A stretch of DNA of 64,000 nt from the sequence record OR062527; one strand, written 5' to 3'. The notes under the pieces are model-generated. The model worked only from the letters and a program-made list of their open reading frames with translations. It made no database searches and was not told the origin of the DNA. The stretch is from Escherichia phage vB_EcoM_11B_SA_NWU. Numbering within the stretch: the stretch's first letter is position 1; the number at the start of each line of letters is the position of its first letter. Position numbers and translations under genes: made by a program. Below, piece after piece: positions 16,143 to 24,131 of this stretch.

Positions 16143-16170
16143 TGGGGACCGAAAGGTCCCCATATTTTTA
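16143..16170 (+). terminator. Stem-loop tggggacc-gaaa-ggtcccca + T-run after gene 54
   Basis: 8-bp stem, GAAA loop, followed by tattttta. Confidence 0.6.
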
Positions 16171-16458
16171 TTTACGGAATGAAATAAAAGCAGCAACTGA
16201 AGCAACAGAGGTTTCTTCAATATAAACCTCAATTTTTACCGGAGCTTCTGACTCAAATTTACCTGTTACTACACCTTGGAAAATACTTTCAGTCTGTTCT
16301 GGCTTTGAAAAATTTTCAGAAGGAAAAATTCCAAACTTTTTATCGGTTCCGAAAATTTTAATAAATTCATCATAAACTGCTTCATTGAAAGCGTTATCAG
16401 CGGGAATAACGCCTTCAACGACGAGTTCTTGACCTAAAAAGCGCAAAGAAGATTTCAT
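16168..16458 (-). CDS. Hypothetical protein (alt-54 intergenic position)
   Basis: 96-aa ORF with SD and promoter upstream. Confidence 0.55.
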   Translation of the reverse strand: MKSSLRFLGQELVVEGVIPADNAFNEAVYDEFIKIFGTDKKFGIFPSENFSKPEQTESIFQGVVTGKFESEAPVKIEVYIEETSVASVAAFISFRK

Positions 16459-16485: not shown

Positions 16486-16520
16486 AACTACTATAACACA
16501 ATACGAGGGACTTGTAAACT
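16486..16520 (-). promoter_or_regulatory. Early (sigma70-type) promoter: GTTTACA-17nt-TATAGT on minus strand
   Basis: Reverse complement gtttacaagtccctcgtattgtgttatagt; near-identical copy at 31790..31822. Confidence 0.5.
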
Positions 16521-18576
16521 ACATTTTGAACTTTTTAGACATTCTGTTGATGTTAACCAAAGAAGCTAAGATTTGAGAAACTTCGCTTTCCTCTTCTTTT
16601 GATTCTTCTACAAGGAATTGATTAAATCCAGCCATTGGACGAACTTCACCAGTTTCCATTAGATGGTCACCATCATATACCGATTCCTCTAATTGTTCAG
16701 AAGGAGGAACAATCGTGCCTTCAATTAGATACTTATTATAAGCGGTTTCTTTCATCATGTACGTACTTACTTTATTAATCTTCAGTAAAATTCCACGCGG
16801 CAAAATAACTTCAGCTTCGGATGGAAATCCTGATAAATGACCCGGAACGATAACTTTAACTCGTTCAGCTCCTTTAATTACCATACCTACATTAGTTTCA
16901 GCGTCTTCATTCGCATATGTAGAATGACTACCCATATGCATTAAATCTTCAGCATCAACTGAACCTTCTCCTTCACCAGAAAATACTGTTCCAGCGTCAT
17001 CTAAAGCCATATAATTTTTACCATATTCACCGAAGATATTTGGCTTGAGTGAAGTAGATACAAAGTTCTTGAAATAGAACATTTTATTTTCTATATTATG
17101 ACGTAAAGTTTTAAAAGTAACTTCTTGGCCACGGTAAAGTGTAGTTCCCGGAGGAAGAACTGAACCTTTAGCAAATGCAGAATCCAACGTCTCAATGTGC
17201 TTAATAGCACGTTCCATATATTCTTCACGTGTAGAATCAGGTTTACCTAAAAGGAACGAGTTCATTTCAACATATGAATCTGCGCAATAATCTTCAATTA
17301 CATCAGACTCAGCCTGAGTTAATCCTTTTGGAGTTACTTCAGTGCTTGCATATTCATATGCCTGAGCAGCAGATTCATCAATTAATTTATAAATTCCATT
17401 CATTACAAATTGAATAATAGCTGTCTTTTCATCTGGTGTAGCTTTAGAACCTTTAACTAAATCATTGACAATTTTCTTAATAACATCAAAGCTATTAGAA
17501 ATATTAATGTCAGCAAGATCGCTTAAAATTTTATCAGTTTTATAATCAAAGAATTCTTTATTCTTTAAATATTCTTGAGAACCTTGATATGTTATATCGC
17601 TCTGCAGCTTGATAGATGGATCGCGTAAACGTGCATGGGCCAATGCAATATGATTTCGGAAGCTTTCGAGTTCATAATCACTAGATTTAAAACGAGAAGC
17701 ACTTCTCATACCACCGATAGCTCCTTTGCTAAAGTTTGAACCAACCTGAATAACGCCAGAGTTCATTGGTCCTTCTGCTTTATATACCGGAACTTTAGAT
17801 TCAAACTCTTGATATTTCTTAGCAGCGAAGCTATCACCCTGAAGTGAAGCATCAACAGTAGAATATTGAGCTTGTGCTGCTAATCGACGACTAATTTTAG
17901 TTTTCTGAATAACAGCTTGATCCGTGCGCTTATCATTTTCTAAAGCAATAGAAGCAGCAACAGCAACAGCTTTAGGAACAGCATTACCTGTTTTAACGTC
18001 TACATAAACATCACCAACCTTTGATTCAACTTTTGTGAATAACTCGGTTGAAATAGGAGGTACACCTGGAATGTCTTCTAAATTGGCATTTTTACGGTAA
18101 ACCATAATATATGCGTACTTTTTATCATAATCCCAGATTTCCTTTAAAAGAACATATCGACCTGCTCCTTTAGTACGTACTAAACGGTCAGCAATAACTT
18201 GCATTTGACGAGCTGCGCCATTTGTTTTACTTTTTAGTACGCGGAATAGGCATGCATCAATTTTATACTGCTTCATTGTTTGAAGAGCAGTATCAAAAAC
18301 AGCATTAATGACGCCAATTGGATTTCCACCCAAGTTTTTAAGCTTAACTAATGATAGTTTCTCATTAACACCTATCATTACGATATGCATCATTTTGTCG
18401 CCTGGCTTAACGTTTTTATTCGTATCACCGCCAGAGGTGTATGTACAAAATCTAAATCCAGGAAGCACGCTTTCTTCACCTGCTTGAATAGCAAAAATTT
18501 GAGGTATTTTATGCTTAGGATTTAAGTTAACAACCGGCGCCGAAGCGCCGTCAAATAATTCTGTAATAAGTTCCAT
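16519..18576 (-). CDS. Alt-family ADP-ribosyltransferase paralog (685 aa)
   Basis: N-terminal MELITELFD... capsid-targeting-like region shared with Alt; C-terminal R-S-E ART motifs (LYRGQ, STSL, EAEVILPRG). Confidence 0.8.
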   Translation of the reverse strand: MELITELFDGASAPVVNLNPKHKIPQIFAIQAGEESVLPGFRFCTYTSGGDTNKNVKPGDKMMHIVMIGVNEKLSLVKLKNLGGNPIGVINAVFDTALQTMKQYKIDACLFRVLKSKTNGAARQMQVIADRLVRTKGAGRYVLLKEIWDYDKKYAYIMVYRKNANLEDIPGVPPISTELFTKVESKVGDVYVDVKTGNAVPKAVAVAASIALENDKRTDQAVIQKTKISRRLAAQAQYSTVDASLQGDSFAAKKYQEFESKVPVYKAEGPMNSGVIQVGSNFSKGAIGGMRSASRFKSSDYELESFRNHIALAHARLRDPSIKLQSDITYQGSQEYLKNKEFFDYKTDKILSDLADINISNSFDVIKKIVNDLVKGSKATPDEKTAIIQFVMNGIYKLIDESAAQAYEYASTEVTPKGLTQAESDVIEDYCADSYVEMNSFLLGKPDSTREEYMERAIKHIETLDSAFAKGSVLPPGTTLYRGQEVTFKTLRHNIENKMFYFKNFVSTSLKPNIFGEYGKNYMALDDAGTVFSGEGEGSVDAEDLMHMGSHSTYANEDAETNVGMVIKGAERVKVIVPGHLSGFPSEAEVILPRGILLKINKVSTYMMKETAYNKYLIEGTIVPPSEQLEESVYDGDHLMETGEVRPMAGFNQFLVEESKEEESEVSQILASLVNINRMSKKFKM

Positions 18577-18579
18577 GAT

Positions 18580-20673
18580 TTATCCTTGAACGAACTTGTA
18601 AGGCATGTTTGTAATATCTATGCAAGACGCAATAATTCCAAGAGATGATTCTACTTTCTGTTTAATATTTGATGAAACAAATGATGCAAAGTCAACTCTG
18701 TCTTCTATTTCAATATCACCTGTCATTGCAACCAATTCACCAGTTTCCATTAAATGGTCTCCGTCATAGATTACCGATTCGGTGAGCTCTTCTGTGGTCA
18801 TAACTTCAGCTTGAATGAGTTTTGTATTATTAGATGTTGTTCCGTCATTATTAGAAGCATCAGTTATTTTATTAACCTTGACCATCAATCCGCGTGGTAG
18901 AATAACTTCAGCTTCTGTTGCTATTCCGAGACTTCCTGGATATACAACATTAACTTTATGAGCTCCATCAATTGCCCATCCTATTTGAACTTTAACATAT
19001 TCAGGATTTTCTTTATACGCTCTTATTTCGTTTGGATTAATAGTTATTCCTTCTTCATTTTTATCAACTGTTAATTCATTGCGAGCTTCTGGTTCTAAAA
19101 GACCAATACCAGCATGTGTGATTCCAAAACGTCCAAAAATGATAGGAGTTAAAGAAGTAGATACAAAATTTCTGAAGTAGAACACTTTATTTTTAACTAA
19201 CGCTTCATATATAGGAGCAGTCATACTTTGAGCACGATAAACTGTAATGCCTTCTGGTATACGGTCACCATTTTCAAAAGCTGAATCTAAGTTATTTATA
19301 GCAGATTCAATTTCTTTTTCACTCATTACATCGTATCGTTCTGGATTGTAACGACCTAAAAGAAGATTATTGATGTCAGTATATCCTGAACCGCAATATT
19401 CTCTAATGCCACGCTTTTGTGATGGAGTATATTTAGAACCATCGCGTGCAATAGTAATATCAATCATTGGACCAGCACCAATTCCAGAAAAACTGTAAAT
19501 CATTCGTTTGAGGAATTTAGTTTTTGTTGCGTTCCAGGAATTTTTAGTTATTTCTTCCCAGACTTCATCTGATTGTCCTTTACGATTTTTATTATGATTA
19601 GCAAGCCATTTATCTTTATAATCTTCAAAGAATTGATTTACAGCTGCTGCGTATTTCTCTAAACATTTTATTGAAGTAGTTGGTTCATTTTTAATTGCAT
19701 TAAAAATTACTTCTTTAATTTTTTCTGAAACTTCACCGACTTGACTCATTGGAAAGAATTTATAATCATAGTGAAGTTCATCTGCCGTTCCTTCGGCAAT
19801 AATTTTTGCTGCCTTTGTTTTAGAAGCTAATGAATTAATTCCAATTTTCATTTCTTCTGCTTCGGGAATTAAAGGTGCAGTAGCTGGTTTATTAAAATTG
19901 GCTGCTGTAGATTCATACTTCTGGAATAATTCACTTTCAAATCTAGAAGATTCCAATGACTGACTTTGTGCAATTGCTCTACGGGAAATTTTAACTTTAA
20001 CGATTACAGCTTGGTCAGAACGTTTATCATTTTCTTGTGCAATAGATGCTGCAATTGCCTCATTTTTAGTTACTTGAGCACCAGTATCTTTATTGATATA
20101 AACATCACCGACCTTCGATTCAACTTTAGTAAAGAGCTCTGTACTAATTTCCGGAACTCCTGGAATGTCTTCTAGTGATACATTTTTGCGATGTATAAGA
20201 ATATATGCATACTTTTTATCGTAATCCCAGAGTTCCTTAAGAAGGACGTATCTGCCACCTGAACGACTGCGGATGAGTCTATCAGCAATAAGTTGAATTT
20301 GTCGAGCTTGACCGGCGGTTTTAGACTTAAGAATACGAAGCATACAGGCATCAATTTTATATTGACGCATTGTTTGCATTGCAACAGTAAAAACAGAATT
20401 GATATAATTAATCGGGCTTGGACCAAGACCTTTTAATTTAGCAATTGAACCTTTAGCAGTTAATGTAAAAGGAACAATATGCATCATTTTGTCGCCCATC
20501 TTTAAATCACGATTAGTATCACCTCCAGATGTATAGGTACATAAACGAAAGCCTGGTTGTTCAATTGCATCATCAACATGAACTGAAAAAATTTGTGGTA
20601 TTTTCTTCTTTGGATTTAAGTTTGTAATCGGAAGAGTAGTATCTTCGTCAAATAATTCTGTAATAAGTTCCAT
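18580..20673 (-). CDS. alt: Alt, packaged ADP-ribosyltransferase (697 aa)
   Basis: Matches T4 Alt N- and C-termini from memory; ART motifs VYRAQ, STSL, EAEVILPRG. Confidence 0.85.
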   Translation of the reverse strand: MELITELFDEDTTLPITNLNPKKKIPQIFSVHVDDAIEQPGFRLCTYTSGGDTNRDLKMGDKMMHIVPFTLTAKGSIAKLKGLGPSPINYINSVFTVAMQTMRQYKIDACMLRILKSKTAGQARQIQLIADRLIRSRSGGRYVLLKELWDYDKKYAYILIHRKNVSLEDIPGVPEISTELFTKVESKVGDVYINKDTGAQVTKNEAIAASIAQENDKRSDQAVIVKVKISRRAIAQSQSLESSRFESELFQKYESTAANFNKPATAPLIPEAEEMKIGINSLASKTKAAKIIAEGTADELHYDYKFFPMSQVGEVSEKIKEVIFNAIKNEPTTSIKCLEKYAAAVNQFFEDYKDKWLANHNKNRKGQSDEVWEEITKNSWNATKTKFLKRMIYSFSGIGAGPMIDITIARDGSKYTPSQKRGIREYCGSGYTDINNLLLGRYNPERYDVMSEKEIESAINNLDSAFENGDRIPEGITVYRAQSMTAPIYEALVKNKVFYFRNFVSTSLTPIIFGRFGITHAGIGLLEPEARNELTVDKNEEGITINPNEIRAYKENPEYVKVQIGWAIDGAHKVNVVYPGSLGIATEAEVILPRGLMVKVNKITDASNNDGTTSNNTKLIQAEVMTTEELTESVIYDGDHLMETGELVAMTGDIEIEDRVDFASFVSSNIKQKVESSLGIIASCIDITNMPYKFVQG

Positions 20674-20710
20674 GTTATCCTCTCTAGTGTTTATTCTATT
20701 TATAAAATTA

Positions 20711-20728
20711 AAGGCCCGAAGGCCTTTA
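20711..20728. other. Stem-loop aaaggccc-gaa-gggccttt between alt and upstream ORF
   Basis: Perfect inverted repeat in 56-nt intergenic gap. Confidence 0.45.
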
Positions 20729-22641: not shown

Positions 22642-23477
22642 CAGAATGCTCCTTGGAAAATATTATCACCACTAGTAGGTCTATTATACAAATACTCTAT
22701 GCCACCGGGTTTAATATAGTTCCATGTCTGAAACGGATGCGTCTGATATGGATGATATAGATTATAAGGATTAAATCCAGGAGTTCTCCAGGTAGTGTTC
22801 CAAGGAAAAGAATCATTTTTAATCATCTTTTCAATTACATCTTTTATAGCTTTTTCACTATCAAAACTTTCTTTATTTTCATTCGATGGAAAAAGCTTAT
22901 TCTCTACATCATTCCATGTATAAACTCGCTGTGCAGTTTTTGGAATACTGTCACGCTCCCCTCGAGCCATCCAATAAACAGGAACATTTAATATTTCACT
23001 CGCATGATCGCAGTGGTGAGCGAGATCGTCAATATAACAAATTACGTTATATTTCTCTTTTGCCTTTTTGAACAACTCTTCTTTTGAAGAATCATGACCA
23101 CACATCAATACTTCTGAGAAGGCACCAGGAAAAAGAGCATTCAAATTAAATTGACGATTCAGCAGAGCGTCAATAGAATCACCCAGTGCTGTAACAGCTA
23201 CAAAATTATAATCTTCTTTTAATTTGTTAATTACACACAGGGCATCTTTATATGGAGACAAGTAACGAATAAAATCTGAACGATTGTATTTTTCAATTAA
23301 CTTGACACCAAGTTCTTCATCACAATTAAAAAGTTTACCAGGTGAAATAAATTTTTCGTCCTGAATCATTTTTAAAATATGTTCTAATGGAAGATTATAT
23401 TTTTGGGCAAAATAAGGAAGGCCTGATTGCCAGCTTAAACATACTCCATCAATATCAGTTAAAATAGTAGGCTTCAT
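22641..23477 (-). CDS. HAD-superfamily hydrolase-like protein (30.2 position)
   Basis: 278 aa; N-terminal LTDIDGV resembles HAD motif I (DxDG). Confidence 0.6.
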   Translation of the reverse strand: MKPTILTDIDGVCLSWQSGLPYFAQKYNLPLEHILKMIQDEKFISPGKLFNCDEELGVKLIEKYNRSDFIRYLSPYKDALCVINKLKEDYNFVAVTALGDSIDALLNRQFNLNALFPGAFSEVLMCGHDSSKEELFKKAKEKYNVICYIDDLAHHCDHASEILNVPVYWMARGERDSIPKTAQRVYTWNDVENKLFPSNENKESFDSEKAIKDVIEKMIKNDSFPWNTTWRTPGFNPYNLYHPYQTHPFQTWNYIKPGGIEYLYNRPTSGDNIFQGAF

Positions 23478-23938
23478 AGAGAGTCTCTTAATAGGTTTAA
23501 CACATCAATAAATTCAGCTTCGGTTAGTATTGTATCATCTTTTGTTAGACCACTAGCCATGCTGTGCTTCAAAACTTTTCCTTTCGAGGCTTGTAATGCA
23601 TCACGAAACCCCTTGTTTTGAATCGCTGCTTCAAAATATGCATTTGTATACAATTCTTTCCACGCTGGGGAGTATCTTGAAAATGGAACTCCGAGCCAGA
23701 AGAGGGTCCCACGGTCCGCAGCTCTTGCATAAGACCTTCCAGCTTGTTGGGCGGCAAGCCCGGATAACCCAAATATACGTCTTTGCTGCTCAACATTTTT
23801 CACCTTGCATCCTTGGAGGAATCCTTCAAGACCTCCGAATTGAATACCATCCATGACGAAAGGCCATTGGGCGAAATTACTTAATGCGCATGATGGCCAT
23901 CTAAAATTGCTTCTAATCTCTAACTCAGACATTTTCAA
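23474..23938 (-). CDS. NADAR/YbiA-like (DUF1768) protein (30.3 position)
   Basis: 154 aa; motif LSNFAQWPFVMDG resembles the YbiA/NADAR signature FSNFAAWP..DG. Confidence 0.55.
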   Translation of the reverse strand: MKMSELEIRSNFRWPSCALSNFAQWPFVMDGIQFGGLEGFLQGCKVKNVEQQRRIFGLSGLAAQQAGRSYARAADRGTLFWLGVPFSRYSPAWKELYTNAYFEAAIQNKGFRDALQASKGKVLKHSMASGLTKDDTILTEAEFIDVLNLLRDSL

Positions 23939-24131
23939 TACTTATAATTTCAACATCAGCCCAATGACCATAGCAAGGAAGACGAAATTCAACTGGCCAG
24001 TTAGGGTCCTTTTCTAATATAATAGACTTAACTTGTGGTTCTTCATGTTCATCAGTATATGGATTTTTATCTGTTACTTTATATGTGACCTTAATGTATT
24101 GAATTCCAAAAATCTTATTAATTATATTCAT
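23925..24131 (-). CDS. Hypothetical small protein
   Basis: 68-aa ORF in 30.x operon. Confidence 0.5.
   Translation of the reverse strand: MNIINKIFGIQYIKVTYKVTDKNPYTDEHEEPQVKSIILEKDPNWPVEFRLPCYGHWADVEIISIENV

Follow-up and report, generated by a model that had tools for sequence, protein, structure and literature searches.

Two tandem Alt-type ADP-ribosyltransferase genes in an Escherichia phage: a common, apparently modular alt locus of which T4 keeps only part

The closest described relative of the genes considered here is alt of bacteriophage T4, whose product (gpAlt, NP_049811) is a head-packaged and injected NAD:arginine ADP-ribosyltransferase, present in T4 at ~40 copies per head. According to mass spectrometry, T4 Alt is cleaved at ITE-6, with the loss of its first six residues, and at LTE-619, with the loss of its last 63 (PMC5694885), and the mature protein is of 68.2 kDa (PMC5694885; review PMC9026906), the mass also computed here for residues 7–619. 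ADP-ribosylation of the alpha subunit of RNA polymerase is established for T4 Alt only, and alt paralogues have been listed for T4, RB49, and 44RR by Nolan et al. 2006 (PMC1524935). The present analysis concerns the alt locus in a stretch of 64,000 nucleotides (nt) from Escherichia phage vB_EcoM_11B_SA_NWU (sequence record OR062527), the whole of which is called the window, where two tandem open reading frames (ORFs), taken from a six-frame list and designated Alt1 and Alt2 (coordinates in Table 1), lie in the same place as T4 alt, between alt.1/gene 30 and alt.-3/gene 54, and share with T4 Alt the four-part architecture, the R-S-ExE motifs, and the gp21 sites. Alt1 is 99% identical to T4 Alt in the N-terminal domain (N-domain) and 95% in the C-terminal tail, the C-propeptide, but differs in the effector part, with 31% identity in the middle and 67% in the ADP-ribosyltransferase (ART) domain and with synonymous sites close to saturated; the ART domain of Alt2 is 37% identical to that of T4 Alt. 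Because the effector parts differ, results on the targets of T4 Alt are not simply transferable to Alt1 or Alt2.

The most satisfactory explanation, to which a probability of roughly three in four is given, is that the window carries the full and common form of the alt locus, that is, two late genes for injected Alt-type arginine mono-ADP-ribosyltransferases of modular construction, most likely with different substrates. Each gene would encode an arginine-specific mono-ADP-ribosyltransferase of ~76–78 kDa, co-transcribed late with the other, in which the N-terminal propeptide MELITE, released by cleavage behind Glu6, would precede an alpha/beta N-domain of ~230 residues peculiar to each phage genus, a helical middle joined to a catalytic domain of the C3/VIP2/iota type with R-S-ExE motifs, and an acidic C-terminal propeptide of 54–65 residues, released by cleavage behind the L-x-E at ~631. 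If T4 Alt is taken as the model, both proteins would be incorporated into the core of the prohead, lose both termini to the gp21 protease, and enter the cell with the injected DNA, where they would ADP-ribosylate host proteins ahead of all phage gene expression. The catalytic modules belong to different old lineages, here called type A (Alt1) and type C (Alt2), and most likely act on different host substrates; the locus as a whole would consist of a genus-specific N-terminal module and exchangeable effector cassettes, in one to three copies across the family, with T4 having a type-B cassette at the first position and having lost Alt2 by deletion.

A preliminary description of the window, made from the letters alone, had proposed two tandem Alt-family ADP-ribosyltransferase genes, and both ORFs are exactly as it placed them, each matching PHROG 802 ('Alt-like RNA polymerase ADP-ribosyltransferase') from end to end (E 2.5e-272 for Alt1 and 3.2e-256 for Alt2) and Pfam PF03496 (ADPrib_exo_Tox) with 129.8 bits (E 1.1e-37) and 72.2 bits (E 4.6e-20), respectively, well above the gathering threshold of 23.4 bits. 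Alt homologues carry precomputed matches to PF26846 (Tevenvirinae_ADPRT) together with PF03496, and both proteins align with T4 Alt, including its N-terminal domain; a scan against NCBIfam gave zero models matching either protein, and a PDB sequence search retrieved no solved Alt structure, the matches being weak and limited to CDTa, iota, and BECa (E ~4e-4). Alt1 and Alt2 share 41% identity over 719 columns in BLASTP (E = 9e-162), so that their likeness is far above chance level. This likeness is unevenly spread. The same description held the first ~250 residues to be shared and the central and catalytic-proximal regions to be diverged; the former are clearly homologous but not identical, with 68% identity over residues 1–238 (55–75% per 40-residue block), and the latter claim is borne out by the ~15% identity of the middle (residues 239–415; 15–28% per block) and the 34% identity of the catalytic domain, the C-terminal tail being 43% identical.

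The tandem pair is ordinary, common, and already annotated, and the window is one more instance of it. At least 80% of the whole locus is covered in 368 phage records, and the DNA specific to Alt2 is found nearly full length in 401, at 92–99% identity, and about four-fifths of the sequenced Tequatrovirus genomes matching the locus encode the second, strongly conserved enzyme; T2 and T6 carry both genes, with 697 and 685 amino acids (aa). The pair is annotated in hundreds of records as 'alt_1/alt_2', 'Alt-like RNA polymerase ADP-ribosyltransferase (x2)', or, in RB32, 'alt.-2', and the record of Acinetobacter phage Ac42 bears the annotation 'alt gene duplication'. Alt homologues were found by tblastn in 1,222 phage records. 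The number of copies at this locus is one in Mosigvirus, Karamvirus, and a Klebsiella phage, one plus a truncated copy in Krischvirus, two in Ac42 and Dhakavirus FB, and three in Dhakavirus MX01 and an Aeromonas phage. The three genes of MX01 (L005, 864–7124) are full-length and in tandem (694, 681, and 707 aa), and one of the three Alt-like genes of Aeromonas phage GomatiRiver_11 (L012, 1881–6920) is short.

The N-domain and the catalytic part of these proteins appear to have had different histories. The N-domain tree groups by genus, placing Alt1 and Alt2 of the window with T4 Alt (97%) and all the Dhakavirus copies together (100%), whereas the ART tree groups by type across genera, with 100% bootstrap for each of types A, B, and C. 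Type A comprises Alt1 of the window, MX01_196, and FB_199 of Dhakavirus; type B comprises T4 Alt and Dhakavirus FB_198; and type C comprises Alt2 of the window and MX01_194, joined by Klebsiella K65 and Ac42 alt.-1. Such incongruent trees describe a conserved, delivery-like module to which exchangeable effectors are joined. The ART domain of MX01_195 falls outside the three types and may be a fourth.

Synonymous sites bear on whether this pattern goes beyond constraint on the catalytic domain. Between Alt1 and MX01_196, identity is 47% in the N-domain, 65% in the middle, 95% in the ART domain, and 51% in the C-terminal tail, and synonymous divergence (dS) is 0.57 in the ART domain (aa 416–632) as against at least 1.39, or saturation, in the flanks and in gp54, gp48, gp29, and alt.-3. 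In blocks of 30 codons, the proportion of synonymous differences (pS) is 0.18–0.50 over aa 453–632 and mostly 0.53–0.97 in the flanking blocks, two of which are lower (0.43 and 0.30); for the rest of the gene and for the same four neighbours, window and MX01 are close to saturated or saturated (pS 0.63–0.81). The low synonymous divergence of the ART domain against saturated flanks and neighbours shows that the type-A cassette was truly exchanged between genera, beyond mere constraint. The comparison of Alt1 with T4 Alt gives the reverse profile, with pS as low at aa 1–240 and from 616 to the end (0.00–0.31, mostly ~0.1) as divergence is in neighbouring genes (dS 0.16–0.30), and with pS of 0.46–0.95 at aa 241–615; T4 Alt and the Alt1 of T2, T6, and this phage therefore join one and the same N-domain to unlike effector cassettes. 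All four combinations of types are seen in Tequatrovirus, namely A+C in the window, T2, and T6, non-A+C in AR1 and phiC600P9, A alone in slur14, and B alone in T4, RB55, and RB59.

A further arrangement was seen in three metagenome contigs (L013, 4001–6055; L014, 4001–6061; L015, 4001–6061) from samples SRR24155011, SRR19633722, and ERZ27282683, where alt.1 and alt.-3 flank just one alt gene, a clean hybrid of an Alt1 N-terminal part and an Alt2 body, with crossovers at ~aa 183, 220, and 50. These hybrids could have arisen by genuine unequal crossing-over of the tandem copies, or they may be assembly chimeras, since T2 has identical runs of 30 and 27 nt at two of the crossover points, near the k-mer size of the assembler. 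In a search of isolate genomes for hybrid single-copy loci, the top matches were all composed of two pieces, representing two genes, the tool joining pieces across a 2-kb gap.

Whether the two enzymes differ in target is the point on which the strongest alternative turns. The split between Alt1 and Alt2 is old, since dS between them is 1.1–1.5, and for the same reason a recent duplication was rejected. At the position three residues before E-x-E in the ADP-ribosylating turn-turn (ARTT) loop, as read from the alignment, Alt2 has Phe (GFPSEAE), which resembles the Tyr of CDTa/Ia (GYAGEYE), whereas the residue is Ile in Alt1 (GIATEAE) and Pro in T4 Alt. In the R-S-E toxin family, E-x-E goes with arginine as the acceptor, and both enzymes are, by this analogy, probably arginine-specific. 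Distinct host targets are plausible because the split is old, the middle domains are unrelated, the ART domains share 34% identity, type C has been kept across genera, and the ARTT residue differs. Under the alternative, Alt2 would be a redundant dosage copy that does the same job as Alt1, altering RNA polymerase alpha and whatever else Alt1 modifies, and merely adds to the amount of injected enzyme; the common architecture, the shared catalytic and processing motifs, the single late operon, and the fact that T4 does well with one copy would all agree with it. Nevertheless, if Alt2 served for dosage alone, homogenisation with Alt1 or loss would be its expected fate, whereas the two proteins are distinct in 401 genomes, and the divergence of the middle and catalytic domains, the high dS, the ARTT turn-1 residue, and the grouping of the Alt2-type ART domain with MX01_194, K65, and Ac42 alt.-1 (100% bootstrap), apart from all Alt1- and T4-type domains, make this alternative unlikely, although it is the one that survives best.

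The preference for injected enzymes with separate substrates also depends on Alt2 reaching the virion. Homologous motifs for the gp21 prohead protease are found in Alt1 (ITE-6 and LTE-632) and in Alt2 (ITE-6 and LEE-631), and an alignment of 20 homologues shows no variation at the P1 glutamates, E6 and E631. The predicted mature proteins would have computed masses of 70.1 kDa (Alt1) and 69.1 kDa (Alt2), and the predicted C-propeptides, of 54–65 residues, are acidic, with isoelectric points of 4.2–4.75. The confidence of the Alt2 structural model collapses at residues 1–10 and from 630 to the C-terminus, outside the predicted mature protein. The retention of both cleavage motifs in both copies supports, by inference, the packaging and processing that the preliminary description had expected; its attribution of both functions to the shared N-terminus is to be amended, in that the N-domain of ~240 residues, according to the cleavage map of T4 Alt, would stay in the mature enzyme, since T4 Alt loses only six N-terminal residues at ITE-6, and in that a second, C-terminal propeptide exists. 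It may be objected that Alt2 is active but not packaged, having a late role inside the producing cell or being packaged too poorly for a role on injection; late expression fits a late intracellular role equally well, and nothing in this analysis places Alt2 in virions. Against this, Alt2 shares with T4 Alt, and without variation among the homologues, the MELITE propeptide, the entire N-domain, and the L-x-E site at 631, the termini past the cleavage sites are modelled as disordered, as expected of propeptides, and the N-domain tracks the genus, as would be expected of a part that docks to phage structures, all of which leaves this objection improbable, and more so than the dosage copy.

The catalytic apparatus of both proteins is complete. 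The R, STS, and E-x-E signatures quoted in the earlier reading are all present, as VYRAQ at 478, FVSTS at 503, and EAEVILPRG at 587 in Alt1 and as LYRGQ at 480, FVSTS at 505, and EAEVILPRG at 587 in Alt2, giving catalytic residues R480, S505-T-S507, and E587-A-E589 in the former and R482, S507-T-S509, and E587-A-E589 in the latter. In the 20-sequence alignment, which includes Alt2, Alt1, and homologues down to 42% identity, R482, S507, S509, E587, and E589 (Alt2 numbering) are invariant, so that the loss of the Arg/Ser/Glu triad in one copy, which that reading had named as evidence against itself, was not observed, and the catalytic Arg and E-x-E line up with those of CDTa/iota toxins. The AlphaFold model, made for Alt2 alone of the pair, so that the prediction of an ART fold covers this protein, shows an alpha/beta N-domain, a helical middle domain, and a C-terminal domain with a mean predicted local distance difference test score of 75.5 and with low confidence at 1–10, 516–519, 630–675, and 678–685 only. 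In Foldseek searches of the PDB, this model matches Vis, Certhrax, CDTa, C3, VIP2, and Ia with E-values of 6e-7 to 1e-3 and a probability of 1.00.

Selection has evidently kept Alt2 in working order. The frame of 685 aa is intact in the window, T2, T6, and UFV-AREG1, the ratio of nonsynonymous to synonymous divergence (dN/dS) is 0.04–0.05 against these three relatives, and in the catalytic domain it is 0.03–0.04 against T2 and T6, with dS of up to 0.5; given a dN/dS of about 0.04, Alt2 is a working gene under strong purifying selection. Among close relatives, the helical middle of Alt1 is the fastest-evolving part of that protein, with 85–88% identity to T2/T6 and a dN/dS of 0.15–0.18, as against 0.01–0.03 in the N-domain and ~0 in the ART domain. 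The idea that Alt2 is a decaying or catalytically dead copy, a pseudo-enzyme or a purely structural internal protein, might draw on the loss of most of the gene in T4 and 90 other records and on a Pfam score below that of Alt1 (72 versus 130 bits), but it was rejected and is largely refuted by the low dN/dS, the invariant catalytic residues, the confidently predicted ART fold, and a gene that is intact in the four phages named and nearly full length in the 401 records.

What T4 has in place of Alt2, a question that the preliminary description had left open, can be answered from the same comparison, T4 holding only a deleted remnant of the second copy. In the T4 record (NC_000866), alt is followed by alt.-1 (61 aa, NP_049810) and alt.-2 (67 aa, NP_049809), with a RefSeq note that reads 'old duplication of the first part of gene alt'. 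Both small ORFs align with Alt2 rather than with Alt1 and correspond to the first ~118 codons of Alt2; PHROGs 23015 and 15247 likewise score 2e-40 and 3e-38 on Alt2 versus 1e-21 and 2e-19 on Alt1, and in a blastn comparison of the T4 region with the window, the DNA of the stub (T4 positions 123065–123450) matches the 5' end of Alt2 at 96% identity. Relative to the window, T4 is without the 1,699 bp between two copies of the direct repeat CTAAAAAGT, and a frameshift of 1 nt at the A-run AATAAAAACGTTAAG divides the remnant into alt.-1 and alt.-2. T4 thus lost a full-length Alt2 by a short-repeat deletion and did not gain a gene fragment by duplication; the RefSeq wording is misleading, since the stub is 96% identical to the full-length Alt2 of relatives. 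The T4-type deletion junction is present in 91 phage records.

Several points weigh against the reading of Alt1 and Alt2 as two injected enzymes with different substrates. The reasoning on the ARTT loop is drawn from clostridial toxins and not from Alt. The L/I-x-E motif is short and occurs as 11 such triplets in Alt1 and 7 in Alt2; motif presence alone would be weak, and the argument for processing rests on positional homology and invariance. A literature search gave work on T4 Alt only, and none on Alt2 or on this allele of Alt1 with regard to virions, cleavage, injection, or activity; for the second copy, no proteomic or functional report on virion presence or targets was found, in a search whose limited extent does not make it proof of absence. 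The N-domain and catalytic-domain trees are neighbour-joining trees of 16 sequences, and the dS case for exchange is clear only for type A; sites in B and C are near saturation, and no statement is therefore made on when these two moved. T4 alt is non-essential and T4 lives without Alt2, so that any role of Alt2 would be conditional.

A broader proposal can be put forward tentatively, at somewhat less than even odds. The alt locus may be a modular arsenal of injected effectors, in which a genus-specific N-domain for head delivery is combined with three or four ART cassettes at the least, all of them ancient (A, B, C, and others), that are traded inside and across genera and whose tandem copies come and go; Alt2 would then be injected with a target of its own, possibly a defence or stress protein, unstudied because T4 deleted Alt2, and the N-domain fold may carry Zeta-toxin, deaminase, or ParB-like effectors in other myoviruses. 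Searched against BFVD, the modelled N-domain of Alt2 (residues 1–240) gave strong matches to other Alt proteins. Weaker matches (E 1e-9 to 1e-4, template modelling score ~0.5) show the fold again among large uncharacterised proteins of other myoviruses, from phages of Dickeya, Erwinia, Vibrio, Shigella, and Agrobacterium, and some of these proteins are annotated with Zeta-toxin, cytidine-deaminase, or ParB/sulfiredoxin domains. These fold matches, together with the genus-specific evolution of the N-domain, provide a lead towards a docking or ejection module able to carry varied effectors.

The surroundings of the two genes are those of T4. On the plus strand, the neighbours are gp29, gp48, and gp54, in the T4 order, and the minus-strand order of alt.-3 (DUF5498), Alt2, Alt1, alt.1 (Phage_blade), DNA ligase gene 30, 30.1, and 30.2 also matches T4; the alt region shares 99.2% identity with Escherichia phages ECP52 and HEMP5, on which grounds the window is assigned to Tequatrovirus (T2/T6/T4-type phages). 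The box TATAAATA upstream of Alt1 (Table 1) is presumably a late promoter, as judged by the established T4 consensus, and the hairpin AAAGGCCTTCGGGCCTTT is terminator-like and would set the unit of gene 30 and alt.1 apart from the alt genes. The Shine-Dalgarno sequence of Alt2, AAGGA, sits inside the 3' end of Alt1, and a scan of the minus (coding) strand found no terminator-like hairpin between the two genes; given the 3-nt gap at the junction AAGGATAAATCATG and this position of the Shine-Dalgarno sequence, Alt1 and Alt2 probably form one late operon, with Alt2 linked to Alt1 in translation and with a promoter predicted from the T4 consensus, which fits proteins needed at head assembly. A second TATAAATA inside Alt1 was not counted as a promoter, ~0.5 chance matches being expected on one strand of this AT-rich stretch. 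Downstream of Alt2, an early-type promoter-like site precedes alt.-3, and in T4, mutants with a C-terminal extension of Alt.-3 evade the CmdTAC defence system (PMC11618068). Elsewhere, the G+C content rises to 0.43 at 23500–23999, in the gene 30.3 homologue, as against 0.32–0.39 in the remainder of 12–25 kb.

Table 1. Positions in the window of the two alt genes, their segments, and nearby features.
Feature	Position	Strand	Remarks
Alt1	18580..20673	minus	ATG start, 697 aa; Alt-family ADP-ribosyltransferase; T4 alt position, adjoins alt.1 and gene 30
Alt1 N-domain	19960-20673	minus	
Alt1 helical middle	19429-19959	minus	residues 239-415
Alt1 ART domain	18778-19428	minus	
Alt1 catalytic core	18778..19317	minus	aa ~453-632; core of the exchanged cassette, by synonymous divergence from MX01 gene 196
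Alt1 predicted C-propeptide	18583-18777	minus	
Alt2	16519..18576	minus	ATG start, 685 aa; second Alt-family ADP-ribosyltransferase
Alt2 N-domain	17863-18576	minus	
Alt2 helical middle	17332-17862	minus	
Alt2 ART domain	16684-17331	minus	
Alt2 predicted C-propeptide	16522-16683	minus	
TATAAATA, presumed T4 late-promoter box	20697..20704	minus	23 nt upstream of Alt1 ATG; read from sequence
GAGAGG, Shine-Dalgarno	20679-20684	minus	precedes Alt1 ATG
AAAGGCCTTCGGGCCTTT, G+C-rich hairpin	20710..20727	minus	just past alt.1 stop; terminator-like
AAGGATAAATCATG, Alt1/Alt2 junction	18574..18587	minus	3 nt from Alt1 stop to Alt2 start
CTAAAAAGT, first copy of 9-bp direct repeat	18229..18237	minus	Alt2 codons ~114-116; left end of T4 deletion
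CTAAAAAGT, second copy	16530..16538	minus	9 nt before Alt2 stop codon; right end of T4 deletion
AATAAAAACGTTAAG, A-run	18406..18420	minus	T4 has one A fewer
TATAAATA, second occurrence	19293-19300	minus	inside Alt1, ~codon 458; ~720 nt upstream of Alt2
alt.-3	16168-16458	minus	96 aa, DUF5498, PHROG 1739; downstream of Alt2
Early-type promoter-like site of alt.-3	16490-16518	minus	TTTACA-17-TATAGT with TG; begins just after Alt2 stop
Gene 30.3 homologue	23474-23938	minus	

Set beside known systems, the pair of the window is the same as the alt_1/alt_2 pairs of other Tequatrovirus phages (T2, T6, RB32, RB51, RB68, wV7, AR1, UFV-AREG1, and others), with 92–99% DNA identity and no difference of substance, and T4 alt.-1/alt.-2 are the stub of a gene that stands whole here as Alt2. 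Other Straboviridae with several alt copies (Dhakavirus MX01 with three and FB with two, Ac42, Aeromonas phages with three, and 44RR with ORF187c, Nolan et al. 2006) also have tandem paralogues at the same locus, and Dhakavirus shares ART types A, B, and C with Tequatrovirus, but they differ in their genus-specific N-domains (42–47% identity to the window) and in copy numbers and combinations of types. The catalytic fold and motifs are those of the C3/VIP2/iota-Ia/CDTa/Vis R-S-E toxins (PF03496), with the E-x-E typical of the arginine-specific members. T4 ModA and ModB belong to the same R-S-E ART clade as Alt (PMC5512222), but they are small early proteins, synthesized after infection, unpackaged, and without the Alt N-domain. 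A conserved delivery module with variable, horizontally exchanged effectors is likewise found in the polymorphic toxins and polyvalent phage proteins described by the Aravind group, from which the alt locus differs in having only one effector per polypeptide and no evident immunity gene. The 3-nt gap between Alt1 and Alt2 holds no ORF for a cognate immunity protein, and alt.-3, on the downstream side, occurs irrespective of the cassette type; as no immunity gene adjoins the cassettes, the locus is not classed as a polymorphic toxin, only the modular logic being alike.

Knowledge of injected phage ADP-ribosyltransferases comes nearly all from T4, which is atypical twice, being without Alt2 and having at alt a catalytic cassette that differs from that of most relatives, T2, T6, and this phage among them. 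Alt2 is a conserved and probably injected enzyme missing from the model phage, and its targets would reveal further host functions that these phages disable in the first seconds of infection. To the pairs already on record, the present comparison adds a pattern across genera, in which the N-domain follows the genus and the catalytic part follows the type.

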